In this document: positions 4,837 through 29,305 of the stretch, one piece after another
Position numbering within the stretch: the first letter of the stretch is position 1
Layout of the letters: every line of letters starts with the position of its first letter
Notes under the pieces: generated by a model
Seen by the model: the letters and a program-made list of their open reading frames with translations, nothing else
What the model was told of the DNA's origin: nothing
Database searches by the model: none
Assembly: GCA_016196885.1 (NCBI GenBank)
Contig: JACPWU010000002.1
Span: 63,629 to 95,628 of the forward strand
Direction of reading: 5' to 3'
Length of the DNA stretch: 32,000 nt
Source: Chlamydiota bacterium
GTDB taxonomy: Bacteria; Auribacterota; JACPWU01
Position numbers and translations under genes: made by a program

Positions 4837-5628
4837 ATGCGAGACACCTTCCTTTGCGTCTTTCTTCATTCCCTGAGAGGTTTTCGCTATGTCTCTCTTG
4901 TGGTTCCATGGTCCGGCAAGCGGATCTTTGGATACTTATGCTTTCTGGGGTTGTGTTTTTCGCTGGTGTTTCTTTTTTTTCAACTTTCTCCTTTGATCAA
5001 GGGTCTAAACTCAACGACAGAATGGGCGATTCATGAACTTCCGACGTTCAGAATTGAAAATGGGCATCTTCGAATTTTAGAAGAATCCTCTCCTAAAAAA
5101 GAATCAGAGTCCAAAAAAGTTTATCGTCCGGTATGGAATCAATCCTTTGCCCTTTGGTTGGATGAGAATGCTCAAGGTTCAGATTTAGCTCCTTACCCCT
5201 TTGGCATGATTTTGAAATCGGGCGAGATGATTGTCAAAAGGGGACTCATGATTCAAAACGTTCACTATGGCCAGGATTTTTCTATCACCATTTCCCCGTA
5301 TACCCTTCGGGAGGCTAGAGACATCCTCTTGTGGGTGTCTCCTCTTTTTCTCCTAGGGGCAGGCTGGTTCAATTTGGTTTTGATCAAGGGCCTGGAGGCC
5401 ATTTTCTTAGGGACGTTGGCCTGTGTGGGGAGCCGGCTCTTTGGAAGAAAAATTTCCTGGAAATCCTCTTTTACCCTGGCTGTGGTGGCCTTAGCACCTG
5501 CTCTTCTTTTCTCATCGGTGCTGGGGATTTTTGGAATTTCCCTTCATTGGGGGAATCATTTTTATGATGGTCTTTATCTTCTCTTTTTTGGTGGGGCTTG
5601 TATTCAATGGGTGCGAGAGGTGAGATGA
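4837..5628 (+). CDS. Polytopic membrane protein, DUF1189-like
   Basis: 263-aa ORF starting directly after the def stop and ending in an ATGA overlap with fmt. An N-terminal TM is followed by a soluble segment (ELPTFRIENGHLRIL) and 3-4 C-terminal TMs, as in DUF1189 proteins. The family call is tentative. Confidence 0.6.
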   Translation: MRDTFLCVFLHSLRGFRYVSLVVPWSGKRIFGYLCFLGLCFSLVFLFFQLSPLIKGLNSTTEWAIHELPTFRIENGHLRILEESSPKKESESKKVYRPVWNQSFALWLDENAQGSDLAPYPFGMILKSGEMIVKRGLMIQNVHYGQDFSITISPYTLREARDILLWVSPLFLLGAGWFNLVLIKGLEAIFLGTLACVGSRLFGRKISWKSSFTLAVVALAPALLFSSVLGIFGISLHWGNHFYDGLYLLFFGGACIQWVREVR

Positions 5629-6566: not shown

Positions 6567-6674
6567 AAATTTCCAATAACAAATGTCAAATTAATTTCCA
6601 ATTCTCCAATGACCCATTGGGGATTGGAGCATGGGTCATTCATTTGATATTTGTTATTGGAAATTGGTTATTTC
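6567..6674. repeat. Periodic-arm hairpin H2 between fmt and rsmB (weaker 8-nt periodicity)
   Basis: AATTTCCAATAACAAATGTCAAAT (left) pairs with ATTTGATATTTGTTATTGGAAATT (right), and AATGACCCAT pairs with ATGGGTCATT. The left arm carries a 16-nt bulge. Units include ATTCTCCA, ATGACCCA / TTGGGGAT, TGGAGCAT, TTGGAAAT, TGGTTATT. Confidence 0.65.
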
Positions 6675-6675
6675 T

Positions 6676-7216
6676 ATGAGTCCTCGTGACGCTGCCTTTC
6701 ACGCCCTTCAAAATTGGGAAAAGAAATCTTTGCCTATCTCTTACACCCTCGAGCCCTATTTTTTAAAGGCGAGTGAAGAAGATTTTTGAGAACATGAGGC
6801 GGTTGGGAATCAAAATGATTCTACCGATGGTGGCGGATGCGACGAAGATCAAAAATCTTTTTAAAATTCCTTTTGACCGCATTTTGGTAGATGTCCCGTG
6901 TTCTAATTGCGGAGTTTTTGCTAAAAGGGTCGAGGCCCGCTGACGGTTTTCTATGAAAGAAGTCAAGCGCTTGGCTGCGTTACAGATTCAAATTTTAAAA
7001 GAGGCGCTTCGGCTTCTAAAGTCAGGGGGGATTTTGGTGTATTCTACGTGCAGCATTGATCCTATCGAAAATGAGGAAGTGGTTCGAGCTTCCTTGAAAG
7101 ACCAAGCTCAATTCCAGCTCACCGATGAAAAAACAATATTTCAAACTCTTCAGCAGGCGGGGGGCTATTGGGCAAAGATAAGACTTTCCCTTGACAAGGG
7201 CGCTTTCCTAATTTAG
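6676..7216 (+). pseudogene. rsmB: 16S rRNA m5C967 methyltransferase RsmB, inactivated (large internal deletion, frameshift, in-frame TGA)
   Basis: The conserved def-fmt-rsmB order is kept. 6676-6786 encodes 37 aa (MSPRDAAFHALQNWEKK..) and then a stop. A +1 frame from about 6767 reads ..ENMRRLGIK..FDRILVDVPCSNCGVFAKRVEAR*RFSMKEVKRLAALQIQIL..GGILVYSTCSI.P.ENE, which aligns with the E. coli RsmB C-terminus (FDRILLDAPCSATGV..PDIKWLRR..LQSEIL..GGTLVYATCS). The TGA at 6941-6943 replaces the conserved Trp. The NusB-like domain and the SAM-binding AAPGGKT region are missing. Confidence 0.85.
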
Positions 7217-7233
7217 ATTGAGTCTCAATTAAA
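7191..7233 (+). promoter_or_regulatory. Sigma70-like promoter with an overlapping palindrome upstream of the FTR1 operon
   Basis: TTGACA (7191-7196), a 17-nt spacer, then TAGATT (7214-7219). The palindrome ATTGAG-T-CTCAAT (7217-7229), within TTAGATTGAGTCTCAATTAAA, overlaps the -10. SD AGGAG at 7237-7241, ATG at 7248. Confidence 0.45.
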
Positions 7234-7247
7234 CCCAGGAGTGTCAG

Positions 7248-8654
7248 ATGTTTGAATCGTTCATTATTACCTTGAGAGAAGGGATTGAGGCCTCCCTGGT
7301 GATCGGCATCCTTTTGGGGATTTTGAAAAAAATCTCGAGGGAGGACCTCGTTCGCTTCGTTTACGGGGGTGTGGGGGCCGCGGTCGTGGCCAGTGGCCTG
7401 GGGGCTCTTTTCCTCCAATCCTTTGTCATCAATGAAGAGGTGTATGAAGGGACCCTTTACCTTGTCGCCGCTTTTTTTGTGATCACCATGCTTTGTTGGA
7501 TGCGCCGGCATGCCAGAACATTAAAGGGAGAAATTGAAACGGCTGTTCATCACATGACAGGTGGAGCCCAGAAAAAAGGAGAGGCCTGGGGAATTTTTGC
7601 CTTCACCTTTTTCATGGTTTTTCGGGAAGGGGTTGAGACGGTTCTTTTTTTAAGTGCCGTGGGTCTTACCACGCAAAAGCTTTTGTCTTTTATCGCAGGA
7701 CTGTTGGGTCTGGTGCTGGCCGTTCTTTTCTGCGTGGCTTTTGTGAAGGGGACCCTGCGGATTGATTTGGGGAGATTTTTCCGGGTGAGCACCGCCGTTT
7801 TATGGATTTTTGTTTTTCAATTGTGGGTCAATGGTTTTCACGAATTGTCCGAAGCTCAAATTTTACCTGCCAGTCAAAGGGAGATGGCCCTTGTAGGACC
7901 TTTGGTTAGAAACAATGCCTTTTTTATTTTGGCCATTCTGGCGATTCCCATTTTTATTTTTTTATTCTCTGCTCGGAAAAGGGAAAATTTACCCGATGAA
8001 ATGTCAGGCCCTGAACGCAGACTGGCGTTGTCCAAGGCGAAAAGTGAAAGGCGCTGGCGTTTCAGTTGGTCGGCTGTCTCTTTTTTGATTCTTCTGTCTT
8101 TGGGGGCGCATACCGTTTATTCCAATCGGTCTGAAAAAATAGACCCTCCCCTTCTCGTAGAAAGCCAAGGCGGCTCGATTAAAATTCCTCTTTCTGAAGT
8201 AAATGATGGAAGGCTTCATCGGTTTGGCTTGAATGTTGGGGAAGGCATGGTTCGTTTTCTTGTCATTAAAACCAGCGATGATCGTTATCGAACAGCCTTT
8301 GATCTTTGCGAAATCTGTGGAGATTATGGCTATCGCCAAGAAGGTGAGAATATTATTTGTCTCAATTGTACGGCGGCCATCCATCCTCCGACAATGGGTG
8401 TGGCAGGGGGATGCAATCCCATTCCTTTACAATCGTGGGTCGAGGGAGGGGAGCTTTTGGTTAAAGAGACAGATTTAAAAGTGTTTCAAGATCATTTCAA
8501 AATGAAGGTGCTACCGGAAGTGACGTGCACCCTTTGTCACATGAAATTACATTTTGAAGAGGCAAAAGAAATAAAGGCGAAGGGAAAAACTTTTTATCTT
8601 TGTCCGATGGAATCTTGCCAAAAAGAATTTGAGAAACGGTATTTGAATTATTAA
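7248..8654 (+). CDS. FTR1-family metal permease fused to a DUF2318/COG4393-like Cys-rich domain and a C-terminal YHS/TRASH-like segment
   Basis: Two REXXE motifs (TLREGIEA, VFREGVET) in a multi-TM N-terminal half. About 8139-8480 reads AFDLCEICGDYGYRQEGENIICLNC..GGCNPIPL. About 8517-8651 reads TCTLCHMKL..GKTFYLCPMESCQKEFEK. Confidence 0.85.
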   Translation: MFESFIITLREGIEASLVIGILLGILKKISREDLVRFVYGGVGAAVVASGLGALFLQSFVINEEVYEGTLYLVAAFFVITMLCWMRRHARTLKGEIETAVHHMTGGAQKKGEAWGIFAFTFFMVFREGVETVLFLSAVGLTTQKLLSFIAGLLGLVLAVLFCVAFVKGTLRIDLGRFFRVSTAVLWIFVFQLWVNGFHELSEAQILPASQREMALVGPLVRNNAFFILAILAIPIFIFLFSARKRENLPDEMSGPERRLALSKAKSERRWRFSWSAVSFLILLSLGAHTVYSNRSEKIDPPLLVESQGGSIKIPLSEVNDGRLHRFGLNVGEGMVRFLVIKTSDDRYRTAFDLCEICGDYGYRQEGENIICLNCTAAIHPPTMGVAGGCNPIPLQSWVEGGELLVKETDLKVFQDHFKMKVLPEVTCTLCHMKLHFEEAKEIKAKGKTFYLCPMESCQKEFEKRYLNY

Positions 8655-8693
8655 AAACTAATTTGGACGAAATTATTTTTAGAGACTTTTCCT

Positions 8694-9956
8694 ATGCTCT
8701 TACGAATCCTCAGTGAATCTTTCATGCGTCGCAAGCGGCGCAAAATACTGGGTGTTTTTGCCGTTTCCCTGGGCGCCAGCCTGGCGACGGCGGTGATTGG
8801 GATTTCCTTGGAAGTGGGAGATAAGGTGAGTCGTGAATTGAATGTTTATGGCTCGAATATCGTGGTTCATCCTTCGGATATTGTAGATGAAGAAGAGGGC
8901 CCCGTTCTGGGACAGCCCAGGCTCGACGAATCGGACCTTCCCAAAATGAAAACGATTTTCTGGGGCAATAACATCATGGATTTTGCCCCTTTTCTTTTGA
9001 GCGAGGTTACCCTCAAGGGCGAGACAATTTCTATTGAAGGAACATGGTTCTCTAAAGAAATGAGTGTCCCAGATGGCCCATCCGTTAGAACGGGAGTCGA
9101 AACCCTTTTCCCTACCTGGCATGTGGAAGGGTCTTGGCCTCGAGATGATCAGGCCTTGAGAGAGGTGCTCGTAGGAAAAGAGATCGCGGCCCAGTTTAAT
9201 ATTCATCCTTCTCAAAAAATCACGATTGAGAAAAACGGAAAACCACTTGAGGTTTTAGCAACAGGAATTTTAAATTCGGGAGAGCAATACGATTCGAAAA
9301 TTTTGGTGGATTTAGATTTGGCCCAAGGGCTCACTGGACTTCCTAAGGGAGTGGACCAAGTTTTCGTTCGAGCGCTCACCATTCCAGAAGATGATTTTCT
9401 GAAGCTTTACGCGCGTCATCCGCAGTCTCTTTCTCCTCAAGAGTATGAACGGTGGTCATGTTCCCCTTATGTCAGTACCGTTGCGGCTCAGCTTCAGGAG
9501 GCGATTGCGCATGCGGTTGCAGAGCCCATTCTTGAAGTTTCTCAAAGAGAAGGGGTTTTGCTTAAAAAGCTCAAAGGACTTTTTATTTTTATTTGTGCAG
9601 TTGCTTTATTAGCCGCTGGAGTTGCTTTAACCACTGTTTTAATGGCCACGGTGGTAGAAAGGCGTCAGGAGGTCGGGCTTTTAAGGGCTTTAGGCGCAGG
9701 CTCCAAAGATGTGGTTTTAATTTTTCTATCTGAATTGGCTGTCATGGCCATCCTCGGATCTTTTTTGGGGGGGGCCTTAGGCTATGGATTGGGACAATGG
9801 ATATCCTTTCATTTGTTTCACTCTTTTATTCAACCTAATCCGATGGTTCTCTTTATTGTTGCGGGAGTGACATTGACCATCTCTCTTATGGGAGGCCTTT
9901 TCCCTATACGATTTGCCCTCAAAGTAGACCCTGTGAGAGTCTTGCATGAAATTTAA
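8694..9956 (+). CDS. ABC transporter permease, FtsX/MacB-type with a large periplasmic domain
   Basis: 420 aa. N-terminal TM (RKILGVFAVSLGASLATAVIGISL), a soluble domain of about 250 aa, then a 3-TM FtsX-type C-terminus containing ERRQEVGLLRALGAG. Confidence 0.85.
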   Translation: MLLRILSESFMRRKRRKILGVFAVSLGASLATAVIGISLEVGDKVSRELNVYGSNIVVHPSDIVDEEEGPVLGQPRLDESDLPKMKTIFWGNNIMDFAPFLLSEVTLKGETISIEGTWFSKEMSVPDGPSVRTGVETLFPTWHVEGSWPRDDQALREVLVGKEIAAQFNIHPSQKITIEKNGKPLEVLATGILNSGEQYDSKILVDLDLAQGLTGLPKGVDQVFVRALTIPEDDFLKLYARHPQSLSPQEYERWSCSPYVSTVAAQLQEAIAHAVAEPILEVSQREGVLLKKLKGLFIFICAVALLAAGVALTTVLMATVVERRQEVGLLRALGAGSKDVVLIFLSELAVMAILGSFLGGALGYGLGQWISFHLFHSFIQPNPMVLFIVAGVTLTISLMGGLFPIRFALKVDPVRVLHEI

Positions 9957-11061
9957 AATGTTTTTAAAACTTTGTTTTGCTTCGATTTCTCATCAAAAGG
10001 GTAAATCAGCTTTGATGATGATTGTTTCTGTTATGGCCGTTGCGGTGACCACCAGTCTCTTGGGATTGATTTATGATGTTCGGCTTCAAATGCAAAAGGA
10101 ACTCATGGCCTTTGGCCCTAATTTTAAAGTCCAACCTCAATGGAATACCATTGGCAACATGATTTCGTGGGCCCAGTACGACGAAATTGAAAAAATGTTT
10201 TTCAGGCCAGATGCAATTATTTGCCCTGTTTTAGCGGGTGTGGTGTTGTGGAAAGATCGCTCTCAATTAATAGAAGGCGTTTTATTAGATGCTTACCAAA
10301 AGATTTCCAAGCATTGGATAGTGGAAGGTACATGGCCAAATAAGCCAGGAGAAGTTTTAGTGGGAGAAAAAGTCGCTCAGAAATTTCATTTAAAGTTGGG
10401 AGAGACTTTGACTTTTGATCAGTCCTCTCAAGCTTTTTTGATTCGAGGTTTTTTTCGATCAGGGACCCGAGAAGAAGAAAAAATAGTTTTCTCAATGAAA
10501 GGCGCGCAAAAAATTTTAAAAGAGGAAAAAAACTTTTCATTTGTTTTTGCCAGATTAAACAATTCTCTTCAGGAATTAGAAAATTTAAGCGAAAATATTG
10601 AAAAACATTTTCCTGATTTAAAGGCGGTTCCTATTCGAAGGGTTTCTTTGGCGGAGGGAGCGATTCTAGATCGTATTGGCAGTTTAGTGGGATGGGTGAA
10701 TATCCTGATTTTGATGGTTGCTGCGTTGGCTTTGATGGCGACTTCAACAGTTTTGGTGGATGAGCGCCGTGAAGAGTTTGGCTTGCAGCGGGCCTTGGGA
10801 GCAAGTCCCGCTCAATTGATGCGGCTTTTTTACATGGAAACTTTTTTGAGTGCCTTCATCGTTTCACCCCTTGGTTTTTTACTAGGATTCTGGGGGCTAA
10901 AAATATTGGCTTATGAGGTTTTTTCGGCTCAAGCGACTTTTCGGTGGGAAATGGTTCCTGTGATTTTGATTGTTTTAATGGTTGTCATTCTTCTAGGAGA
11001 GAGTGTGGCTGTGAGAAGAATTGCGACCCTTGAGCCGGCGATGGTTTTAAAAGGGGAGTAA
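9946..11061 (+). CDS. ABC transporter permease, FtsX/MacB-type (second copy)
   Basis: 371 aa with the same architecture and ERREEFGLQRALGAS. It overlaps the previous gene by 11 nt (alternative ATG at 9958). Confidence 0.85.
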   Translation: MKFKMFLKLCFASISHQKGKSALMMIVSVMAVAVTTSLLGLIYDVRLQMQKELMAFGPNFKVQPQWNTIGNMISWAQYDEIEKMFFRPDAIICPVLAGVVLWKDRSQLIEGVLLDAYQKISKHWIVEGTWPNKPGEVLVGEKVAQKFHLKLGETLTFDQSSQAFLIRGFFRSGTREEEKIVFSMKGAQKILKEEKNFSFVFARLNNSLQELENLSENIEKHFPDLKAVPIRRVSLAEGAILDRIGSLVGWVNILILMVAALALMATSTVLVDERREEFGLQRALGASPAQLMRLFYMETFLSAFIVSPLGFLLGFWGLKILAYEVFSAQATFRWEMVPVILIVLMVVILLGESVAVRRIATLEPAMVLKGE

Positions 11062-11068
11062 ATGAGTA

Positions 11069-11103
11069 AAGGACGATGGACGATGGAAGATGGACGAAGA
11101 TGA
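11069..11103 (+). repeat. Five tandem purine-rich heptamers between the permease and ATPase genes
   Basis: AAGGACG ATGGACG ATGGAAG ATGGACG AAGATGA. They carry four ATGs in three frames. A 13-codon mini-ORF (11062-11103, MSKGRWTMEDGRR) ends in an ATGA overlap with ATG 11100. Confidence 0.7.
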
Positions 11104-12173
11104 GCAGCCTTATTCAAGCAAAAAATTTAACGCGTCGTTATAGTGACCATGTCATGGCCCTCGATCATGTAGATTTAACAGTTGAACGAGGTGAATGGCT
11201 TGCCATGATGGGGCCTTCTGGGTCTGGGAAGACGACCTTGCTGAATTTATTGGGTTGTTTGGATCGTCCCACGGAGGGAGAAATTTTCTTTGAAAATCGT
11301 TTGATCAGTACTTTCAGTGCTCAAGAGTTGAATCGCTTTCGCCGCGAAAATGTAGGGATCGTTTTTCAGCAATTTCATTTGATTGGTTATTTGACGGCCC
11401 TGGAAAATGTAATGTTGGCTCAGTATTATCACAGCATGGTCGATCGTGAGGAGGCAAAGCGTGCCCTAGAGGATGTCGGATTGGGTGAGCGGATTCATCA
11501 TTATCCGTCACAACTTTCGGGAGGGGAGCAACAGCGGGTTTGCGTGGCCCGGGCCTTGATTAATCAGCCTAAATTGATTTTGGCAGATGAACCTACAGGA
11601 AATTTGGACGAGAAAAGCGAAGAGACGGTGCTGGATCTTTTTCGGCGTTTGCACGCAAAGGGACACACTATTTTAATGGTCACGCATGACGTGACCGTTG
11701 GAAAAATGGCGGATCGTCAACTGCAATTGGAACACGGAAGAATAGCAGGATCTTATTTAAGTCCCCTTCAAGCAGAGGAGGATATTGAGAATTTTCTCAA
11801 GCGCTTATGGGAATTACGTGAAGAGGGTAAGCTTTCGTATGACTATTTGCAGAAAAATAATTTTTTGGATCATGCGGGTGTTTTGAAATACATGCAGGCC
11901 AAAGAACTTTTGGAAGTGAAAGATCGAAAAATCTATTTTACTTCAGCAGGTGAGCTTCGTATGAGAGATATCATTCGTCGCCACCGGCTGGCCGAAATAC
12001 TTTTTTCTAAAGCTTTACACATGGATAAAGAAGAGTCGGCTGTTGAGGCCTGTCAATTTGAGCACATGCTCAATCCCGATATCACAGAAAGAATCTGTAC
12101 TTTTTTTCATCATCCAAAGAAATGTCCTCATGGGAAGGAAATTCCTGGAGGGAAATGCTGTGAAAGACCGTAG
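11100..12173 (+). CDS. ABC transporter ATP-binding protein (MacB/LolD-like) fused C-terminally to a DtxR/MntR-family metal-sensor module
   Basis: MSSLIQAKNLTRRY.. is a typical N-terminus (the ORF track start at 11076 is an in-frame alternative). Walker A GPSGSGKTT, signature LSGGEQQR, Walker B LILADEPT, H-loop VTHD. From about 11775: EDIENFLKRLWELREEG..RRHRLAEILF..EACQFEHML.P.I.ERI..F...P.KCPHGKEIP, the DtxR-family pattern. Confidence 0.85.
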   Translation: MSSLIQAKNLTRRYSDHVMALDHVDLTVERGEWLAMMGPSGSGKTTLLNLLGCLDRPTEGEIFFENRLISTFSAQELNRFRRENVGIVFQQFHLIGYLTALENVMLAQYYHSMVDREEAKRALEDVGLGERIHHYPSQLSGGEQQRVCVARALINQPKLILADEPTGNLDEKSEETVLDLFRRLHAKGHTILMVTHDVTVGKMADRQLQLEHGRIAGSYLSPLQAEEDIENFLKRLWELREEGKLSYDYLQKNNFLDHAGVLKYMQAKELLEVKDRKIYFTSAGELRMRDIIRRHRLAEILFSKALHMDKEESAVEACQFEHMLNPDITERICTFFHHPKKCPHGKEIPGGKCCERP

Positions 12174-12254
12174 CTCGTCTTTCGTCGTTCGTCTTCCGTT
12201 TATAAGCAAGAAGTTAGTAACGGACGACGAACAACTAACGAAGAACGACGAACA
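12174..12254. repeat. Periodic-arm hairpin H3 (7-nt units) directly after the ATPase stop
   Basis: Left arm CTCGTCT TTCGTCG TTCGTCT TCCGTTT (12174-12201). Right arm ACGGACG ACGAACA ACTAACG AAGAACG ACGAACA (12220-12254). The arms are complementary with mismatches. Confidence 0.75.
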
Positions 12255-12283
12255 AAAATTGTTCAAAAGAAAAACAGGTTGTT

Positions 12284-13561
12284 ATGAACCCCTATCATGG
12301 CTTATGGCTTAAGGCTCAAGAATTAATGCCCGGCGGTGTCAACAGTCCCGTACGGGCTTTTAAGTCTGTGGGGCTTGATCCGCTGATTGTTTCCAAAGCC
12401 AAGGGTTCCAAAATTTATGATGTTCGAGGCAAGGCCTATTTGGATTTGGTCATGTCCTGGGGACCTTTGATTTTAGGGCATGCGCATCCTGAGATTTTGA
12501 AAGCAGTAAAAGAGGCTTTGGAGGAGGGGTCTAGCTTTGGTGCCTTGTCTCATCGCGAAATTCTCTTGGCTGAGGCGATTTGTAACGCGCTGCCTTCCCT
12601 TGAAAAAATCCGTTTTGTCAGTTCGGGAACAGAAGCGGCCATGACAGCCATTCGTTTGGCGCGGGCTTTTACTGGAAGGGATAAAATGATCAAGTTCGAA
12701 GGTTGCTATCACGGCCATTCCGATTTTCTTTTGGCCAAGGCGGGCTCTGGCCTTGCGACTTACAGTCTCGCAGGAAGCGCGGGGATTCCTAAAGAGGTTT
12801 TGAAATCTACGCTTGTTCTGCCATTCAATGATTGGGTGGCTCTTGAAAAAACAATGAATCGCTTCGGTCGTGAAATCGCCTGTATTTTGGTAGAACCCAT
12901 TCCCGCCAACATGGGCTTGGTGTTTCCCGAAAAGGATATGCTTAAGACCTTAAGAAAAATGTGTACGCAAAAAGGAATCCTTTTAATCTTTGACGAAGTG
13001 ATCACAGGTTTTCGAGTCGGATACGGAGGCGCACAAGAGCTTTATCACGTTCAACCTGATTTAACTATTTTAGGGAAAATCATTGGCGGCGGATTTCCCG
13101 TGGGTGCTGTCGGTGGGCGTAAAGAAATCATGGATCAATTGGCACCTTTGGGACCCGTGTATCAAGCAGGAACCCTTTCTGGAAATCCGGTGGCCATGGC
13201 TGCGGGATTAAAAACTTTGGAAATTCTGAAGAGAAAAGGCGCTTATGAAAAACTTGAAAAGCTGGGCGCAACTCTTGCTGGTGGTCTCGAAGAAATATTA
13301 AAGAAGAAAAAAATTTCCTTTCAGCTCCATCGCATCGGCTCCATGATGACTCTCTTTTTTAATGATCGGCCGATTGAGAATTATCAGGATGTATTACAAT
13401 GTAATACAGAAAAATTTAATCAATTCTTTAGAGAGATGTTTCGAAAAAGAATTTTCCTTCCTCCCTCTGCCTTTGAAACCTGGTTTTTGAGCTTGAGCCA
13501 CTCTGCTCAAGACATCGAGAGCTTCTTAAAGGCAGCTGACCAGACGTTCAAGGCTTATTAA
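12284..13561 (+). CDS. hemL: Glutamate-1-semialdehyde 2,1-aminomutase
   Basis: 425 aa. PGGVNSPVRAF, SWGPLILGH, FDEVITGFR and LGKIIGGGFPVGA (PLP lysine) are typical of HemL. Confidence 0.95.
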   Translation: MNPYHGLWLKAQELMPGGVNSPVRAFKSVGLDPLIVSKAKGSKIYDVRGKAYLDLVMSWGPLILGHAHPEILKAVKEALEEGSSFGALSHREILLAEAICNALPSLEKIRFVSSGTEAAMTAIRLARAFTGRDKMIKFEGCYHGHSDFLLAKAGSGLATYSLAGSAGIPKEVLKSTLVLPFNDWVALEKTMNRFGREIACILVEPIPANMGLVFPEKDMLKTLRKMCTQKGILLIFDEVITGFRVGYGGAQELYHVQPDLTILGKIIGGGFPVGAVGGRKEIMDQLAPLGPVYQAGTLSGNPVAMAAGLKTLEILKRKGAYEKLEKLGATLAGGLEEILKKKKISFQLHRIGSMMTLFFNDRPIENYQDVLQCNTEKFNQFFREMFRKRIFLPPSAFETWFLSLSHSAQDIESFLKAADQTFKAY

Positions 13562-13617
13562 GAGCTCTTTTCCAACCCATTGTACAAGAAGGAGTAAGAT
13601 TTTGTTCATTTTTGTTT

Positions 13618-13650
13618 AACTTAACTCATTCTTTAGCAAGGAGTTAAGTT
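13618..13650 (+). terminator. Stem-loop after hemL
   Basis: AACTTAACTC (13618-13627) and GAGTTAAGTT (13641-13650) form a 10-bp perfect stem with a 13-nt loop, 57 nt after the hemL stop. There is no strong T-tract. Confidence 0.45.
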
Positions 13651-13732
13651 CTGAAATATTAAATTATTCTTTTAATCTTTCTGAAATGAACAGTGTCTAT
13701 ATATATGGGTGGGGAGATAGGACGAGGAAGCC

Positions 13733-13876
13733 ATGTCAACGAGAGAGTATATTTTGAATCAAGTGGAGCTGATCAAGAGAGATTGTGCAAAGTTGAAGAT
13801 TACGCCAGAAGAATGGGTTTCAAGATTTGCCAAGAAGTACCATGATGAACATGCTTTGCAGGTGGTTGTGGCTTAA
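13733..13876 (+). CDS. Hypothetical small protein (47 aa); possibly the 5' fragment of a decayed gene
   Basis: ATG preceded by GGACGAGGAAG. It encodes MSTREYILNQVELIKRDCAKLKITPEEWVSRFAKKYHDEHALQVVVA, with no recognisable family. An overlapping 108-aa ORF in another frame continues to 14153. Confidence 0.25.
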   Translation: MSTREYILNQVELIKRDCAKLKITPEEWVSRFAKKYHDEHALQVVVA

Positions 13877-21680: not shown

Positions 21681-24600
21681 ATGAATGAATACAAAAAAGA
21701 AGGTTTCATCGAGAGACTGATCGAATTTTCTGCTCGTAATAAATTTCTTATTCTTGCCCTTATTCTTGCGGCGGCAATCGGGGCGGGTTATACCCTTAAA
21801 AATATTCCTTTGGATGCGATTCCGGATCTTTCGGATACCCAGGTGATTGTTTACTCTCGCTGGGATCAGAGCCCCGATATTATTGAAGATCAAGTGACCT
21901 ATCCCATTGTCACGGCTCTTTTGGGTGCACCCAATGTCAAGGCCATTCGGGGGTTCTCTGATTTTGGATTTTCTTATGTCTATGTGATTTTTAAAGATGG
22001 AACGGATATTTATTGGGCCCGGAGCCGGGTTCTCGAATACTTAAGCAAAATTACTGCGAAACTTCCTGAGGGAGTGAAGACCGAGTTGGGTCCGGATGCG
22101 ACAGGGGTGGGATGGGTGTTTCAATATGCCTTGGTGGATACTTCTGGGAAACACGATCTCCAGGAGTTGAGGTCGTTTCAGGACTGGTATCTTAGGTACC
22201 ATCTTCAAAGTGTGCAGGGAGTTTCTGAAGTGGCGTCCCTGGGGGGATTTGTGAAGCAATATCAGATCACCCTTGATCCCAATAAGCTTTTGGCCTATCA
22301 CATTCCCATTTCGAAGGTCGTGGAGGCCATCCGCAGTGGAAATCAAGAAGTGGGCGGGCGGCTTCTTGAATTTTCCGGGGCAGAGTATATGGTGAGGAGC
22401 CGCGGATATGCGAAGTCTATAGAGGATCTTGAAAAAATTGTAGTGGGGGTTGACTCAAAAGGAACGCCCATTTTGGTGAAGCATGTTGCGAATGTGGCCA
22501 TGGGGCCGGAGATTCGAAGAGGGCTGGCGGATTTAGATGGAGAAGGGGACGTAGTAACGGGGACTGTGATTATGAGGTATGGGGAAAATGCCTTAAGGGT
22601 GATTGATCGGGTGAAGGGAAAATTAAAAGAGATGGAGTCTTCTTTTCCGTCAGGGGTCACCTGGAAAGTGACTTATGACCGTTCAGAGCTGATTAAGAAA
22701 TCCATAGAGACTTTGAAACATCAGTTGATTGAAGAAATGGTCATTGTCAGTTTTGTGATCATGATTTTTTTGTGGCATTTTCCCTCTAGTTTTATTCCGA
22801 TTGTGACAATCCCCGTGGCCGTGTTTCTTTCTTTTATTCCCTTTGTGGGGCTTAAATTAACTTCAAACATTATGTCGCTTTCAGGCATTGCGATTTCAAT
22901 AGGAGTTCTCGTAGATGGGGCGATTGTGGAATTAGAAAATGCCTATAAGCGTTTGGAACAATGGAATGAGGGAGGAAGACAGGGGAGTTTTCATGCCATT
23001 CTTCTCAAGGCGATGAAAGAAGTGGGGCCTTCCGTTTTCTTTTCTCTTTTGGTGATTGCCGTTTCCTTCATGCCCATTTTTACATTGGTCGATCAGGAGG
23101 GGCGTTTGTTCAAGCCCTTGGCCTGGGCAAAAAATTTAGCGATGGTGACGGCTGCGATTTTGGCGGTGACTTTGGATCCTGCCCTCAGAATGCTTTTCAC
23201 GCGAATGGATCCTTTTAAATTTAAACCGCTCTTTATTTCAAAGTTTTTTTCTACACTCTTGGTAGGAAAATATTATTCAGAAGAGAAACATCCGGTGAGC
23301 CGCGTTCTTTTTAAAATTTATGAGCCGGTTTGTCGTTTTGTTTTAAGGCATCGAAAGGCTACGATTCTTGCCGCCACGTTGTGGGTGGCGACGACCGTTC
23401 CCGTTTATTTCAAATTGGGCGCTGAATTTATGCCCCCTCTTTGGGAAGGGGATCTTCTTTACATGCCAACGACATTGCCCGGGATCTCTGTCACGGGGGC
23501 GCAAGACCTTTTACAAAAGCAGGATCAAATTCTTAAGAGTTTTCCGGAAGTCGAGCGGGTGTTTGGAAAATCGGGGCGCATTGAAAGTTCGACGGATCCG
23601 GCCCCCTTTTCCATGGGAGAAACCGTGGTCATGCTGAAGCCAGAAAGGGAGTGGAGAAACGTGAAGCGATGGTATTCGGATATCATCCCAGAATTTTTGC
23701 AAAGGCCTTTTCGTGCCATCTGGCCGGACCGGATTTCGAAGGAAGATTTAATTAATGAAATGGACAAGGCCTTGAAAATTCCTGGAACGACCAACGCATG
23801 GACCATGCCGATCAAAAACAGAATTGATATGTTGAGTACAGGCGTCAGAACTCCTATTGGGATTAAAATTTTGGGGGCTGATATTAAACAGATTGAAGAA
23901 ATCGGGACGAATCTGGAAATGATTTTGAAAGATATTCACGGAACACGCAGTATTTATGCGGAGCGGGTGGCAGGCGGTTATTTCCTGGACTTTGATTTAA
24001 AGCGAGAAGAATTGGCCCGGTACGGTTTGTCTGTCGCAGATGTTCAAATGGTGATGATGTCTGCCATTGGCGGAGAACCCATCACGACGACGGTTGAAGG
24101 GCGAGAACGCTATACGGTGAATGTTCGTTATTCTCGTGAATTGAGGGATGATGTTGAAAAACTGAAACGGGTTTTGATTCCGACCCCTGCGGGGCCCCAA
24201 ATCCCTCTGGCTCAACTTGCAGACATTCACAGAACCTCGGGTCCTGCCATGATTCGAAATGAGAATGGTCTTTTGGCTGGATATGTTTTTGTGGACATGA
24301 CGGCGAGAGACATTGGAGGCTATGTGAGTGAGGCCAAACAAATTGTTTCTCAAAAACTTAAACTTCCTGAAGGGTATGGTCTGATTTGGAGCGGGCAATT
24401 TGAAAACATGTTGCGGGTGAGGAAACGGTTGAAGGTAGTGATTCCCCTGACTCTCTTTATTATTTCTCTTTTGCTTTACATGAATACAAAATCTGCGGTG
24501 AAGACAGGGATTGTTTTGCTCGCAGTCCCTTTTTCATTGATCGGGGCGGTGTGGCTGCTCTGGATTTTAGGATATAATATTTCCATTGCGGTTTGGGTGG

Positions 24601-24974
24601 GGATGATTGCCCTCATGGGACTGGATGCGGAGACGGGCGTTTTCATGCTTCTTTTTTTGGATCTCTCGTATCAGGATGCTTTGGTGCGAGGACAGATGAA
24701 TACAGAAAAGGATTTAGAGGAAGCAGTTGTTCAGGGGGCCGTGAAGCGGGTGCGTCCCAAAATGATGACGGTGATGGCTGCTTTTGTGGGGCTTCTTCCA
24801 ATTATGTGGGCGACGGGAGCAGGCGCCGATGTGATGAAGCGAATCGCGGCTCCGATGGTGGGAGGGCTTGCGACTTCATTTATGCTGGAGCTTTTGGTTT
24901 ATCCAGCGATTTATGCGATGTGGAAATGGCATTTTGAAATGGACATGGGTAAAAATATGACTGCTGAAAAATAA
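21681..24974 (+). CDS. cusA: Heavy-metal RND efflux pump, CusA/HME family
   Basis: About 1097 aa from MNEYKKEGFIERLIEFSARNKFLIL (the track start at 21648 lies inside hairpin H7). 12-TM RND topology with two large periplasmic loops. Strong CusA-like stretches include DAIPDLSDTQVIV, GPDATGVGWVFQYAL and LSGIAISIGVLVDGAIV. Confidence 0.93.
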   Translation: MNEYKKEGFIERLIEFSARNKFLILALILAAAIGAGYTLKNIPLDAIPDLSDTQVIVYSRWDQSPDIIEDQVTYPIVTALLGAPNVKAIRGFSDFGFSYVYVIFKDGTDIYWARSRVLEYLSKITAKLPEGVKTELGPDATGVGWVFQYALVDTSGKHDLQELRSFQDWYLRYHLQSVQGVSEVASLGGFVKQYQITLDPNKLLAYHIPISKVVEAIRSGNQEVGGRLLEFSGAEYMVRSRGYAKSIEDLEKIVVGVDSKGTPILVKHVANVAMGPEIRRGLADLDGEGDVVTGTVIMRYGENALRVIDRVKGKLKEMESSFPSGVTWKVTYDRSELIKKSIETLKHQLIEEMVIVSFVIMIFLWHFPSSFIPIVTIPVAVFLSFIPFVGLKLTSNIMSLSGIAISIGVLVDGAIVELENAYKRLEQWNEGGRQGSFHAILLKAMKEVGPSVFFSLLVIAVSFMPIFTLVDQEGRLFKPLAWAKNLAMVTAAILAVTLDPALRMLFTRMDPFKFKPLFISKFFSTLLVGKYYSEEKHPVSRVLFKIYEPVCRFVLRHRKATILAATLWVATTVPVYFKLGAEFMPPLWEGDLLYMPTTLPGISVTGAQDLLQKQDQILKSFPEVERVFGKSGRIESSTDPAPFSMGETVVMLKPEREWRNVKRWYSDIIPEFLQRPFRAIWPDRISKEDLINEMDKALKIPGTTNAWTMPIKNRIDMLSTGVRTPIGIKILGADIKQIEEIGTNLEMILKDIHGTRSIYAERVAGGYFLDFDLKREELARYGLSVADVQMVMMSAIGGEPITTTVEGRERYTVNVRYSRELRDDVEKLKRVLIPTPAGPQIPLAQLADIHRTSGPAMIRNENGLLAGYVFVDMTARDIGGYVSEAKQIVSQKLKLPEGYGLIWSGQFENMLRVRKRLKVVIPLTLFIISLLLYMNTKSAVKTGIVLLAVPFSLIGAVWLLWILGYNISIAVWVGMIALMGLDAETGVFMLLFLDLSYQDALVRGQMNTEKDLEEAVVQGAVKRVRPKMMTVMAAFVGLLPIMWATGAGADVMKRIAAPMVGGLATSFMLELLVYPAIYAMWKWHFEMDMGKNMTAEK

Positions 24975-25023
24975 TAGTAATTATTGCTTTGTTGGCTTAT
25001 GATGTCTGAAGGAAGGACTGTTT

Positions 25024-25419
25024 ATGAAAGCACTGATGATGGCCTTTTTTTATTTCATGGCTTCCATGACTTGTTCTTGGAGCCTGATGCAGGAATGTTG
25101 TTCCGGGAAAGTCCATCCTCGGGTTTGCGTTGAAAATCATCACTCCCATCGTGCTGATAAAGAAAACTCAAAACATCATAGACATTCACAAACCAACAAG
25201 ACTTGCTGTAGTCAACTGATAACCCCCCTTGTCGATTCTTTCAGACTCTTGCAGAAAAGTTTTTTGACGGATTTTCAAGTGTGGATCAGAAATTTTCATC
25301 AGGGTTGTTTTGAATGGCAAAAATATTTTTCGATTTTTTATCGAGGGCCTCCATTTTCTATTCGTGGAAGGCCTCTTTATATCGTTCTTTTCTTTATCCA
25401 TGCACCTCCCCATCCCTAG
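25024..25419 (+). CDS. Small exported Cys/His-rich protein, paralog of 18196..18591
   Basis: 131 aa. N-terminal hydrophobic segment; CC-x8-C-x25-CC with ENHHSHRADKENSKHHRH; C-terminal GPPFSIRGRPLYIVLFFIHAPP. It has the same length and motif order as the protein at 18196. Confidence 0.55.
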   Translation: MKALMMAFFYFMASMTCSWSLMQECCSGKVHPRVCVENHHSHRADKENSKHHRHSQTNKTCCSQLITPLVDSFRLLQKSFLTDFQVWIRNFHQGCFEWQKYFSIFYRGPPFSIRGRPLYIVLFFIHAPPHP

Positions 25420-25515
25420 GCGATAAGGTGGCGTCTTTTTCTTCTCGTACGCGCAACCTTTCTATGTCTTGTCCCATTCTTATTTTTAAACGCAAATCAA
25501 CTATAAGGAGGAGAT

Positions 25516-25788
25516 ATGAAAAAGTTGTTTGGATTTTTAGGGATTGTTTTTGTGGCTCTGGCCTTTAATGTTTTTGTTCAGGCGCATGAAGGACAGGAAC
25601 ATGGAGGAGGAACACAGACAGAGAGTTCTTCGGTATCTCAGGAAGATAATCAAGAATCAAGCACGGCCAGTGTTACCTACACTTGTCCGATGCATCCTGA
25701 TGTGAGCGAGAAAGAGCCTGGAAAATGTCCTATCTGTGGCATGAATTTGGAGGAGAAAAAGCTTCCATCTGAGGCCAAGAAGGAATAA
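25516..25788 (+). CDS. Secreted stand-alone heavy-metal-binding-domain (HMBD) protein
   Basis: AAGGAGGAG SD, signal peptide ending VQA, a His/Glu-rich HEGQEHGGG stretch, an acidic Ser-rich linker, then YTCPMHPDVSEKEPGKCPICGMNL (25678-25749). Confidence 0.8.
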   Translation: MKKLFGFLGIVFVALAFNVFVQAHEGQEHGGGTQTESSSVSQEDNQESSTASVTYTCPMHPDVSEKEPGKCPICGMNLEEKKLPSEAKKE

Positions 25789-25902
25789 GAAGCAAGAGAA
25801 TCGTCTGTGTAAAAATATGATTTTGCTGAAAACTTATTGAGGCTGTCATCACATTCGCTTCGCTATTTTCAAAGGTCTCAATATCTAACAAAGGAGAGAA
25901 AG

Positions 25903-26271
25903 ATGAAAAAGATCGTGTTTGCAGTTCTTATGTCAGTGATAGGTTTATCAGCTTTTGCCCATGAAGAAGGTGAGGCGAAGGACGATAGCATTAAGGGTGA
26001 AGTGATGGATTTGGCGTGTTACGCGAGTCATCCGGATACAGGCAAAGGCGAAAGTCATGCAAAATGTGCCATGCAATGTATGGAAAAGGGTTTGCCTGTA
26101 GGAGTTCTAACCTCAGATGGAGTTCTTTACATCGCTTTAGGCTCTGAGCATGTCTCTGCCAATAAGAAACTGGTCCCTTATGCCGGAAAAATTGTCACCG
26201 TCGAAGGGCATGTTTATGAGATGAATAACGTCAAGTTCATTGAAGTCGAGGAAGTTGAAGCAGGAGCGTAA
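25903..26271 (+). CDS. Secreted small Cys-containing protein of unknown function
   Basis: Start moved to MKKIVFAVLMSVIGLSAFA (AAGGAGAG SD). The mature part reads HEEGEAKD..DLACYASHPDTGKGESHAKCAMQCMEKGLPVGVL..., followed by a likely beta-rich C-terminus. Confidence 0.65.
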   Translation: MKKIVFAVLMSVIGLSAFAHEEGEAKDDSIKGEVMDLACYASHPDTGKGESHAKCAMQCMEKGLPVGVLTSDGVLYIALGSEHVSANKKLVPYAGKIVTVEGHVYEMNNVKFIEVEEVEAGA

Positions 26272-26283
26272 GAAACCATTTAC

Positions 26284-26315
26284 CGAGGTCCTGTTTTTCT
26301 TGAGACAGGGCCTCG
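26284..26315 (+). terminator. Stem-loop after the small Cys protein
   Basis: CGAGGTCCTGT..ACAGGGCCTCG: an 11-bp stem with one G.T pair and a T-rich loop, 13 nt after the stop. Confidence 0.4.
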
Positions 26316-26350
26316 TGTGAATGATTAAGAAACGTGAAAAGGGGGGAACG

Positions 26351-27817
26351 ATGCAAATTTTTTTTAAGAAGGTAACCCTTTTTATTTTTAATGTGGGAGC
26401 CTTCGTGATCTTAGGGTGTGGGTCCATTCCAAAGAATCAAGATTCTCGTGAAGTGAATCAAGTTTTGGAAGAGCGTCTGGGATATTCTCGGCAGAGTGAT
26501 GAGAAAAAGGCCGAGAATGAAATTGAAAAAAGAGTACAGGTTCTTTTTAATGAAAAATTAACTTCTGACTCAGCTGTTCAAATAGCACTTCTTAAAAATC
26601 CTTCGATTCAATCCGCTTTTGAAGATTTGGGGATTGCTCGAGCGGATTGGGTTCAAGCGGGTTTGCTTAAAAATCCCATTTTTTCAGGGCATGCCCGTTT
26701 TCCTGAGGGAGGAGAGGGGGATACCAATGTCGAATGTGCAATTGGGACGGATCTTTTGGATGTTCTTTTTCTTCCCTTGCGCAAAAAGCTGGCCTCCTCT
26801 CAATTTGAGAAAGTAAAACTTCGTGTAAGTCATGAGATTATGGATGTGATCGCTGACGTAAAAACGCACTTTTATACCCTTCAGTTCACCATGCAAATTT
26901 GGACGATGAGGCAAATGGCTTTGAAGGCTGCCGAAATTTCTATGGAGTTTGCCTCTCGGCAGCATGAGGCTGGGAATATCAGTTCTCTGGACTGGGTGAA
27001 TGAAAAAGTTGTTTATGAGCAAGCAGAGCTAGATCTCATTCATAGCGAGGCAGATGTTGAAGTGGCTCGAGAGAAGTTGATCCCCCTGCTAGGTTTGTCA
27101 GGAAAAGGGGAGATGAGCTTGCAAATAGAAAATCACTTGCCAGAACTTCCATCCAGCGACCCCTCTTTGGAGGAGCTTGAAGAGCGGGCACTTGCGCAGC
27201 GTTTGGATTTAGCTGCTGCAAGGAAGGAAATAGAGATTTTGCACAGATCATTGTCACTCACTCAAGTTGGGGTTATTCCCTCTGTGAATGTTGCGGCCAA
27301 TACAGAAAAGGATTCAGATGGAACACGTGTGACAGGACCGATGTGGGAGTTGGAACTGCCTCTTTTTGATCAGAAGCAACCTGCCATCGCTCGGGTGAAG
27401 AATCAAATACGCAAGAGTCAATATGAACTTGCTGCAAAGGAAAACGAGATCCGTTCAGAGGTGAGAATTTTAAAAGGGAAAATGTTAACCGCGCGAAAAA
27501 TAGTAGAAATCTATCGAGACAAAATGATTCCCCTTCGAGGTCAAGTCATCGTTCTTACACAGCAAAATTACAATTATATGTTGATGGGGGTGTATCAACT
27601 TCTCCAGGCAAAACAAAATGAGATCTCTTCCCAGCGCGAGGGAATAGAGGCGCTCGGAGATTATTGGATTGCCCGGGTAGATTTAGAACAGGCCCTCGGG
27701 GGACGAGTTCCAGAAGCGGTGTCTGAAAAAAACTCAACGGTGTTGCCCATTCAACAAATAGAGGTCGAGCAACCCTTGCAGAGTGAAATGCATCATCACC
27801 ACGGAGGTGAGTCATGA
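26351..27817 (+). CDS. Outer-membrane efflux lipoprotein (NodT/TolC family), second copy, without its own pump
   Basis: Start at MQIFFKK.. (G-rich SD). Lipobox VILGC. Two OEP repeats. C-terminal tail ..SEMHHHHGGES. Its stop overlaps the oxidase start (ATGA). Confidence 0.85.
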   Translation: MQIFFKKVTLFIFNVGAFVILGCGSIPKNQDSREVNQVLEERLGYSRQSDEKKAENEIEKRVQVLFNEKLTSDSAVQIALLKNPSIQSAFEDLGIARADWVQAGLLKNPIFSGHARFPEGGEGDTNVECAIGTDLLDVLFLPLRKKLASSQFEKVKLRVSHEIMDVIADVKTHFYTLQFTMQIWTMRQMALKAAEISMEFASRQHEAGNISSLDWVNEKVVYEQAELDLIHSEADVEVAREKLIPLLGLSGKGEMSLQIENHLPELPSSDPSLEELEERALAQRLDLAAARKEIEILHRSLSLTQVGVIPSVNVAANTEKDSDGTRVTGPMWELELPLFDQKQPAIARVKNQIRKSQYELAAKENEIRSEVRILKGKMLTARKIVEIYRDKMIPLRGQVIVLTQQNYNYMLMGVYQLLQAKQNEISSQREGIEALGDYWIARVDLEQALGGRVPEAVSEKNSTVLPIQQIEVEQPLQSEMHHHHGGES

Positions 27818-29166: not shown

Positions 29167-29185
29167 AATATTTAAGAAGCTGTGT

Positions 29186-29262
29186 CATAACTCCCCTAAC
29201 CCCTCTTATCTTAAGAGGGGAGTTTCTCTCCCCTTAAGGTAAGGGGAGATGGAGGGGTTATG
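29186..29262. repeat. Twin C/G-run hairpins inside a larger inverted repeat
   Basis: CCCCTCTTA-TCT-TAAGAGGGG (29200-29220) and CTCCCCTTA-AGG-TAAGGGGAG (29228-29248). The outer arms ATAACTCCCCT / GGAGGGGTTAT allow an alternative long stem. Confidence 0.65.
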
Positions 29263-29305
29263 AATGTTTTTTGCGAACATTCTGATCTCAGGAAAAAGGA
29301 GAGTG

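Follow-up and report, generated by a model that had tools for sequence, protein, structure and literature searches.

Locus and soundness of the four-gene cassette

We analysed a stretch of 32,000 nucleotides (nt) from the Chlamydiota bacterium assembly GCA_016196885.1 (contig JACPWU010000002.1, GTDB phylum Auribacterota), here called the window, in which a putative iron-uptake cassette of the Fet type lies at 7248-12173 on the + strand. All positions are those of the window. Calling of open reading frames (ORFs) confirms four co-directional, tightly packed genes, as claimed by a previous reading of the same DNA from its letters alone (the sequence-only reading). Gene 1 (7248-8654, 468 amino acids (aa)) encodes an FTR1 permease followed by a FetA-type periplasmic head and can be described as a chimera of a FetM core and a FetA head. 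Gene 2 (8694-9956, 420 aa) encodes a FetB-like permease of the FtsX/MacB type and gene 3 (9946-11061, 371 aa) a FetC-like permease with a MacB periplasmic core domain; the two genes overlap by 11 nt. Gene 4 (11076-12173, 365 aa as called) encodes a FetD-like ATP-binding cassette (ABC) ATPase carrying a DtxR-like module. The true start of gene 4 is probably the ATG at 11100, which yields 357 aa and is used by homologues as well as by a database protein (P0241) that is 100% identical to the gene 4 product with its start called at M9. A ribosome-binding site (AGGAG, 7237-7241, + strand) can be read 6 nt 5’ of the gene 1 ATG. A weak terminator-like hairpin with 9 pairs and a poor T-tract, overlapping the gene 4 stop at 12157-12185 (+ strand), is a candidate terminator.

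In an independent assembly (L087, 7181 nt), window positions 6584-13764 are reproduced without gaps and with a single mismatch (99.986% identity). Thus neither a frameshift nor an assembly error accounts for the gene 1 fusion, and we see practically no room left for such a reading. Moreover, FTR1 and DUF2318 occur together in 120/120 of the gene 1 protein matches listed, about half of which add a YHS domain. A scan of species-representative genomes reported at least 583 relatives; the fusion was verified in the 80 loci that were kept, all of which align over gene 1 residues 1-410 or more. The linker between both halves is modelled together with the following membrane helix as a single unbroken helix.

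Genes for P19, thioredoxins or FMN_bind proteins are found nowhere in the 32 kb window (for P19 also by phmmer with E. coli FetP). This bears out the earlier statement that P19 and thioredoxins are absent from the locus.

Gene 1 joins a genuine FTR1 domain to a FetA-type head

Residues 1-203 of gene 1 match Pfam FTR1 (PF03239) with an E-value of 6.6e-33 and 114.7 bits against a cutoff of 25.3. The NCBIfam equivalog for EfeU (NF041756) scores 141.8 bits, which is under its cutoff of 255. Judged by these profiles, the N-terminal part of gene 1 is an FTR1-family domain and not an EfeU orthologue. The permease domain comprises seven predicted transmembrane (TM) helices (residues 1-240, 7248-7967, + strand). 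Its motif REGIE (residues 10-14, nt 7275-7289) lies inside model helix 2-28 (TM1) and REGVE (residues 126-130, nt 7623-7637) inside model helix 109-137 (TM4). Both REGxE motifs are invariant in all members of a 121-sequence family alignment, which together with the Pfam score bears out the prediction of an FTR1 permease with two REXXE motifs.

The permease core of FetM is matched in BLASTP by residues 4-205 (27% identity, E 3e-15). Against canonical FetA the BLASTP alignment is confined to residues 257-463 (30% identity). Profile-profile comparison by hhalign finds no homology with the N-terminal membrane domains of canonical FetA (probability 0.4%, with a FetA profile built from Enterobacterales sequences only).

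FTR1 proteins have seven TM helices in an N-out/C-in topology. On this background, and with support from PMC6083913, we assume that a basic cytoplasmic linker helix plus TM8 (residues 254-293, 8007-8126, + strand) returns the chain to the periplasm. The linker is K/R-rich by sequence, and the AlphaFold2 model (pLDDT, predicted local distance difference test, 82.9; pTM, predicted TM-score, 0.71) shows one long helix at 254-292. As a whole, the model consists of four parts, namely the seven TM helices, the long helix with TM8, a beta-rich domain and a small C-terminal domain. No solved structure related by sequence to gene 1 was found.

The beta-rich part corresponds to a DUF2318/FtrD-like domain (PF10080, E 3.3e-28, 98.2 bits, cutoff 26.3) at residues 318-417 (8199-8498, + strand). 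The earlier DUF2318 assignment is therefore supported by Pfam with boundaries slightly different from the proposed ~8139-8480. Five cysteines (C354, C357, C371, C374 and C389) are invariant in 121/121 sequences. Their spacing CxxC-x13-CxxC-x14-C (2,13,2,14) is found in 119/121 fusion proteins and in 112/113 canonical FetA proteins. The top Foldseek matches of the head in the PDB are Rieske domains of ring-hydroxylating oxygenases (probability 0.97-0.99). A beta-rich, Rieske-like fold with an all-Cys site hence receives weak to moderate support from the model. The names given to the domain by NCBI and Pfam imply an Fe-S cluster; a single metal ion would be the alternative.

Arginine pairs are seen 5’ of TM8 in gene 1 (SERRWRF, within residues 257-273, nt 8016-8066). 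A twin-arginine-like stretch is also present in E. coli FetA at residues 235-250 (AQRRNALRLW, locus L002), which raises the question of whether the folded head is exported by twin-arginine translocation (Tat). An RR pair within 12 residues of TM8 occurs in 62/121 fusion proteins versus 106/113 canonical FetA proteins, the latter being a set of low diversity. As the motif is inconsistent across the fusion family, we dropped it as a Tat signal for a cofactor-loaded head.

The chain ends with a YHS/TRASH-like domain (residues 424-468, 8517-8651, + strand) that contains C427-x2-C430 and C452-x4-C457. Its best match, TRASH_HVO_1752_C, is sub-threshold (E 0.004, 17.8 bits, cutoff 27). The proposed YHS/TRASH-like tail thus falls short of the cutoff in the window protein itself, but the aligned C-terminal segment scores as Pfam YHS (PF04945) in about half of the homologues. 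C430, C452 and C457 are kept in 59/59 long-form members, and the position of C427 is usually occupied by Asp.

The sequence-only reading had described gene 1 as a fusion of three modules that are normally separate. This does not hold, since canonical FetA already joins eight TM segments, DUF2318 and YHS: the Campylobacter jejuni protein (Cj1660) has 467 aa and exactly this composition (PMC10783030). E. coli FetA (459 aa) scores for DUF2318 and for YHS (tail E 6e-17) and gives no FTR1 match even at E ≤ 1. Nor is the fusion a one-off, given that the architecture is widespread and automatically annotated in databases. By homology, only the FTR1 membrane domain is new in gene 1 compared to canonical FetA. 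The covalent joining of DUF2318 to a permease stands, as FTR1 and PF10080 are located on the same 468-aa chain. Taken together, sequence comparison identifies the cassette as a fetABCD set with a genuine FTR1 permease in the place of FetA's membrane domain.

Genes 2 to 4 are related to FetB, FetC and FetD

Gene 2 matches Pfam FtsX (E 3.3e-17, 63.1 bits, cutoff 25.5), gene 3 matches FtsX (64.4 bits, same cutoff) and MacB_PCD (41.3 bits, cutoff 27). MacB_PCD is not matched by gene 2 of the window and is matched weakly by its orthologues in loci L001 and L083. Gene 2 aligns with E. coli FetB over its full length (37% identity, E 4e-98) and better than with FetC, gene 3 with E. coli FetC (29% identity, E 4e-54) and better than with FetB. 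Including gene 4, which shows 57% identity to FetD, all three genes are reciprocal best matches of their E. coli counterparts. On these grounds genes 2-4 are assigned as specific orthologues of FetB, FetC and FetD. The Fet-type classification of the locus is thereby upheld, with the C-terminal half of gene 1 pairing with FetA and its N-terminal half with the FetM core. The earlier description of genes 2-3 as FtsX/MacB permeases and of gene 4 as their ATPase is supported by Pfam as far as it goes, but it overlooked a DtxR-like module on the ATPase.

Two relatives contain a second mini-cluster ~2 kb downstream of the main cassette (L007, 16823-19255; L009, 17011-19443). It encodes a 169-aa single-TM protein with DUF2318 only, one FtsX permease and an ABC ATPase, and no FTR1. 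This arrangement suggests that the pairing of DUF2318 with the ABC machine is a conserved functional core.

The ATPase carries a DtxR-like module

The nucleotide-binding domain of gene 4 (11100-11759, + strand) is of the MacB/LolD/FtsE type. Its nearest solved structures are MJ0796, MacB, LolD, YbbA and FtsE, with BceA and HrtA as further top matches in sequence and structure; target-normalised TM-scores to type VII ABC structures are 0.8-0.9. E. coli FetD (231 aa) consists of the ABC domain only. In gene 4, by contrast, Pfam detects ABC_tran and Fe_dep_repr_C (PF02742, E 3e-22, 78.8 bits, cutoff 27). Residues 229-365 (11760-12170, + strand) align with residues 8-136 of DtxR/IdeR, that is, with both domains (E 7e-12). 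The module is predicted to comprise helix 1, a winged helix, a dimerisation/metal-binding domain and a terminal Cys/His cluster with CC. PF01325 is not matched, neither here nor in a stand-alone relative from locus L006, yet DtxR residues 8-60 still align. In the AlphaFold2 model (pLDDT 86.1), a stretch of three helices with a beta wing (H-H-H-beta-beta) precedes three long helices, and the connection to the module from the final strand of the nucleotide-binding domain is just a few residues long. None of the solved ABC ATPases matched to gene 4 extends into the DtxR-like domain.

Five of the six metal ligands considered are kept: DtxR H79, E83, C102, E105 and H106 correspond to H303, E307, C326, E329 and H330. 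Among 119 fused ATPases H303 is retained in 112 and the other four in all. The equivalent of DtxR H98 is A322 in the window protein and is variable across the family. An extra Cys/His cluster of the form C-x4-H-x3-C-x-H-x8-CC is located at residues 341-362 (nt 12096-12161). Its residues C341, H346, C350, H352, C361 and C362 show no or almost no variation in the same 119 proteins. The cluster is missing from classical DtxR/IdeR but common to a subfamily of stand-alone DtxR-like proteins, and may represent a third metal or Fe-S site. The helix-turn-helix stretch (residues 250-292) is the least conserved part with a mean top-residue frequency of 0.44 versus 0.69-0.73 elsewhere, and the residues of the DtxR recognition helix are missing.

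The ABC-DtxR fusion is present in 120/120 gene 4 homologues among the matches listed. Some of the stand-alone DtxR-type relatives carry an FeoA/SH3 domain. Four of them (P0362, P0363, P0370 and P0392) are located on contigs of 1.1-2.8 kb that are uninformative on gene context. In L006 (Nitrospirota) a stand-alone DtxR-type gene adjoins a cassette whose ATPase is unfused.

Distribution and synteny

The 80 kept loci belong mostly to Acidobacteriota (Terriglobales, Bryobacterales), the others to Omnitrophota, Planctomycetota, Nitrospirota, Myxococcales, TA06 and deltaproteobacterial metagenome-assembled genomes (MAGs). The exact order [FTR1-DUF2318]-[FtsX]-[FtsX]-[ABC+DtxR-like] is seen in ~60 of ~70 complete loci from several phyla, so that the synteny survey proposed in the sequence-only reading turns out in favour of a shared arrangement. 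The best match of gene 1 among the species-representative genomes has 49% identity. L001 is the closest relative at 61% identity. The nearest named relative is a groundwater MAG labelled Chlamydiae by NCBI, with 68-71% nucleotide identity across the cassette and hemL.

No P19 gene was detected by phmmer with E. coli FetP within the fetched flanks (up to 10 kb) of the 80 loci, and a separate second FTR1 gene was not seen in them either. A recurrent extra partner is likewise absent from 132 flanking ORFs of 23 diverse loci, where no family has more than 4 members; the Pfam table of flanking ORFs covers the 25 commonest families and could hide a singleton P19. TlpA-like genes are rare and found near the cassette only in L010 and L053.

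Several relatives have putative outer-membrane beta-barrel or porin genes (DUF6662/Phenol_MetA_deg-like, OprB) just upstream of the cassette, often together with hemP and fur (L001, 5533-6309; L083, 5203-5979; L006, 9047-9973; L004, 8543-9980). In L001 and L083 the upstream order is fur-hemP-DUF6662. Such porin-type genes could provide an outer-membrane entry route; none of that sort is present in the window.

Our literature search, which left most subscription journals outside, found no paper on the FTR1-DUF2318 or ABC-DtxR fusion, and databases hold automatic names only.

Putative promoter and operator, and probable regulation by iron

A promoter-like site precedes gene 1 at 7191-7219 (+ strand). 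It combines a -35 element TTGACA (7191-7196) and a -10 element TAGATT (7214-7219) with a spacer of 17 nt, matching the consensus at 10/12 positions. The -10 element is overlapped by a palindrome, ATTGAG-T-CTCAAT (ATTGAGTCTCAAT), at 7217-7229, 19 nt before the start codon. The window contains no other exact copy of it. Of 84 fetched loci only two have the exact motif ATTGAGNCTCAAT: L001, where it precedes both fur and hemP, and L083, where it precedes hemP and a near copy precedes fur. The fur gene of L001 shows a TTGACA-N17-TAAGAT layout with the same palindrome upstream. Comparison by hand with the textbook Fur and DtxR consensus is non-discriminating (~9/19 and 10/19 positions). The palindrome is probably an iron-regulator box of the Fur type.

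In Acidobacteriota a Fur-like box, TGAAAT-N3-ATTTCA, is found upstream of the fusion gene in 45/63 fused loci versus 2.6% of background windows. The planctomycetotal locus L005, which has no DtxR fusion, contains a Fur-like box upstream of the fusion gene as well. The fur gene itself is the upstream neighbour of the cassette in L001, L006, L014, L017, L083, L085 and L086, and look-ups from the ATPase side reach the same cassette with fur directly upstream. Owing to the shared operator and the Fur-like boxes, transcriptional control by Fur would be the simplest reading. The sensor on the ATPase would then be left free for a second, post-translational layer. The promoter-like site, the palindrome and the common neighbourhood of fur had escaped the sequence-only reading, as had the FMN_bind gene next to the cassette of L001.

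Other features of the window

The region upstream of the cassette (6680-7216) holds a decayed remnant of rsmB, the gene expected after def-fmt. Two in-frame stop codons, TAA at 6764 and TGA at 6941, interrupt an RsmB/F methyltransferase-like frame of ~180 codons, of which Pfam recognises no more than an 87-aa ORF (6953-7216). This remnant is also present in the L087 assembly. The cassette promoter sits within its 3’ end. Further upstream, def and fmt, as a rule direct neighbours, are separated by a gene for a DUF1189 membrane protein (4837-5628). An ORF for a RelB-type antitoxin (16439-16813, - strand) adjoins the PBP5 gene.

A copper-handling island extends from 18671 to 30076. It encodes an outer-membrane factor, a CusB-like adaptor with repeats of the heavy-metal-binding domain (HMBD), a CusA-like resistance-nodulation-division (RND) pump, a second outer-membrane factor, a multicopper oxidase with C-terminal HMBD and a cytochrome c of the di-haem type. 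A linkage to the cassette was considered and rejected since housekeeping genes (hemL, sucDC and dacA) intervene.

Comparison with known systems

The closest known counterparts are the FetMP-FetABCDEF systems, i.e. C. jejuni cj1658-cj1665, FetMP-Fls on plasmids of E. coli and Salmonella and FetMP-Flp of Yersinia. On E. coli plasmid pJJ1886_5 the canonical order is FMN_bind, FetM, FetP, FetA, FetB, FetC, FetD, TlpA. The window resembles these systems in the order and orthology of B, C and D, the DUF2318 Cys spacing, the putative YHS-type tail, the 7+1 TM layout and the iron-regulon context. In contrast, it has no separate FetM, P19/FetP or FetE/F thioredoxins, the FetA-like membrane domain is a true FTR1 with REGxE motifs, and the ATPase bears a DtxR-like module of 137 aa. 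We regard the cassette as a variant of the Fet system and not as a new kind of system.

FTR1/OFeT systems (yeast Ftr1-Fet3, EfeUOB, FtrABCD of Bordetella and Brucella) share the seven TM helices, two REXXE motifs and an extracytoplasmic metal or redox module. Here, however, the partner is fused and Cys-based instead of being a multicopper oxidase, cupredoxin, peroxidase or P19, and an ABC ATPase machine is an obligatory neighbour. With type VII ABC machines (MacB, LolCDE, FtsEX, HrtBA, BceAB, YbbAP) the cassette shares four-TM FtsX modules, a MacB core in gene 3 and a closely similar nucleotide-binding domain, and by analogy with LolC/LolE its permeases would form a heterodimer. It differs from them in that the client would be the metal-binding domain of a permease and in that the ATPase has a C-terminal sensor domain.

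A regulatory domain at the C-terminus of the ATPase, placed to pair beneath the nucleotide-binding domains, is known from the trans-inhibited importers MetNI (C2) and ModBC (TOBE), and in analogy the transport product would be the inhibitor. Unlike there, the domain is derived from DtxR and has no ACT/TOBE fold, and the ABC part is of the MacB rather than the importer type. Chlamydia YtgC-YtgR likewise has a DtxR-like module at the C-terminus of a metal-uptake ABC component (PMC5599777); the fusion partner in the window is a cytoplasmic ATPase instead of a permease, and the machine is MacB-type versus TroCD-type. Relative to DtxR/IdeR themselves, the module aligns with the two-domain core and keeps the five ligands described above, but has no SH3/FeoA-like third domain, no H98 equivalent, a divergent recognition helix, the extra cluster and the ATPase fusion.

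Proposed mechanism and alternatives

We propose that the cassette is a self-sufficient, P19-less, Fur-controlled iron importer of the FTR1 type with a MacB-type engine and a sensor on its ATPase, which we consider the probable reading, with a fair margin of doubt. It is based on domain identities, orthology, conservation, synteny and operator conservation. The roles are transferred from FTR1 permeases, type VII ABC machines, trans-inhibition of MetNI and ModBC, DtxR and the genetics of C. jejuni, in which fetA, fetB, fetC and fetD are each required for growth under iron limitation (PMC10783030).

Transcription would start from the promoter at 7191-7219 and be repressed under iron-replete conditions via the palindrome, most probably by Fur. 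Gene 1 would form the channel by means of its FTR1 domain and the two REGxE motifs, with TM8 tethering the five-Cys and four-Cys domains over it. These periplasmic domains may capture or redox-process iron and pass it to the channel in place of P19/FetP. Genes 2-4 would assemble into a FetB-FetC-(FetD)2 machine of the MacB/LolCDE type, in which ATP hydrolysis in the cytoplasm moves the periplasmic domains. This machine may act mechanically on the gene 1 head or on iron chelates and thereby load or gate the permease. Finally, rising cytosolic Fe2+ might bind to the paired DtxR-derived modules and restrain the nucleotide-binding domains, so that uptake stops within seconds. This last step, drawn by analogy with MetNI and ModBC, is the least certain one, and we give it slightly less than an even chance. 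The full combination, an ATP-gated FTR1 importer whose MacB-type engine loads the permease via a Rieske-like head and is halted by Fe2+ through the DtxR module, is tentative and rather unlikely to be right in every part. The suggestion of the sequence-only reading that the fusion constrains which parts interact physically is in line with our view, as a natural fusion argues for coupling between its parts.

Several points weigh against the proposal. Only 32 kb are visible, and the rest of the genome may hold genes for P19, thioredoxins or a second FTR1. In L001 the cassette is directly preceded by an FMN_bind gene and a gene for a small membrane protein; given this, the window cassette may depend on a redox partner whose gene lies elsewhere. 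The Foldseek matches to Rieske domains are weak (E 0.04-0.5 over ~110-130 columns), and a periplasmic Fe-S cluster would need Tat export, the evidence for which is inconsistent. For the sensor, solved ABC ATPases offer no precedent, and the analogy with trans-inhibition is one of position and logic. Moreover, the module keeps a complete winged-helix fold in the model, and stand-alone DtxR-type proteins that share CPHG...CC match its full length at 36-48% identity, which makes a role in DNA binding conceivable.

The last point also fits a different view of the module, as a transcriptional repressor that is either tethered to the ATPase or released proteolytically like YtgR, and that autoregulates the operon at 7217-7229. 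The alignment with both the DNA-binding and the dimerisation domain of DtxR/IdeR and the conserved operator fit such a function, as does the stand-alone gene beside the unfused ATPase in L006. However, the helix-turn-helix is the very part that is poorly conserved and has lost the recognition-helix residues. The N-terminus of DtxR sits beside the DNA, and with a linker of a few residues the attached ATPase should clash with DNA unless the module is cleaved off. Precedent exists in that fusions of ABC components with DtxR are reported in 11 phyla and YtgR is cut from YtgC in Chlamydia (PMC5599777); the nearest named relative is labelled Chlamydiae. The regulatory context instead points to Fur, whose gene is adjacent in many loci: Fur-like boxes occur in Acidobacteriota and in one locus free of the fusion, and in the sister genomes the operator also precedes fur, as expected for Fur autoregulation. 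Hence we regard a repressor function, the main alternative to our proposal, as doubtful but deserving of serious consideration.

In a published model of FetBCD the ABC part provides the periplasm with a small molecule or with reducing power, by which CXXC cysteines or Fe3+ would be reduced. The two CXXC motifs of the head domain are compatible with it, and redox partners are variably linked to such loci (thioredoxins and FMN_bind in canonical systems, PMC6083913; FMN_bind in L001). Nevertheless the permeases and the ATPase belong to the MacB/LolCDE/FtsEX group, whose solved members are not known to move solutes across the inner membrane. The cassette is usually devoid of a thioredoxin or flavoprotein, and the mini-clusters of L007 and L009 point to a direct contact between DUF2318 and the ABC machine. 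This model thus appears unlikely for the window, more so than the repressor. Far less likely still is a metal other than iron, such as copper, lead, zinc or manganese, as the substrate of the cassette. Pb2+ transporters are found among FTR1 relatives, YHS/TRASH domains such as the one suspected in the gene 1 tail often bind copper, and some DtxR-family sensors are specific for Mn. A Cus-type efflux system and a multicopper oxidase are encoded 6-17 kb downstream, but separated from the cassette by the housekeeping genes named above. In relatives the cassette is flanked by fur and hemP with Fur-like boxes, the sensor retains the Cys-x2-Glu-His set of the Fe-responsive DtxR/IdeR, and the orthologous FetA-D have iron-dependent phenotypes (PMC10783030).

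Implications

The roles of FetA and FetBCD are an open question, and FetMP-FetABCDEF is induced during human Campylobacter infection (PMC6083913, PMC10783030). As a stripped-down natural version, the cassette of the window narrows this question. The DUF2318 head tied covalently to an FTR1 channel argues for a direct cooperation of FetA with the permease, and P19, the extra domain of FetM and thioredoxins appear dispensable at the level of the locus. The occurrence of DUF2318-only proteins with FtsX and ABC genes elsewhere points to the contact between DUF2318 and the ABC machine as the conserved core. With an iron-sensor module on the ATPase, uptake would be controlled at the step of ATP turnover. 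If our proposal is true, this module is the first case of an ABC ATPase with a trans-inhibition domain that senses metal. It would then follow that canonical FetA is a pseudo-permease, descended by degeneration from a self-sufficient ancestral form. With four genes the cassette is small enough for heterologous reconstitution and cryo-electron microscopy. It is present in many Acidobacteriota and other uncultured lineages of soil and groundwater, for which it may be a major uncharacterised route of iron acquisition.

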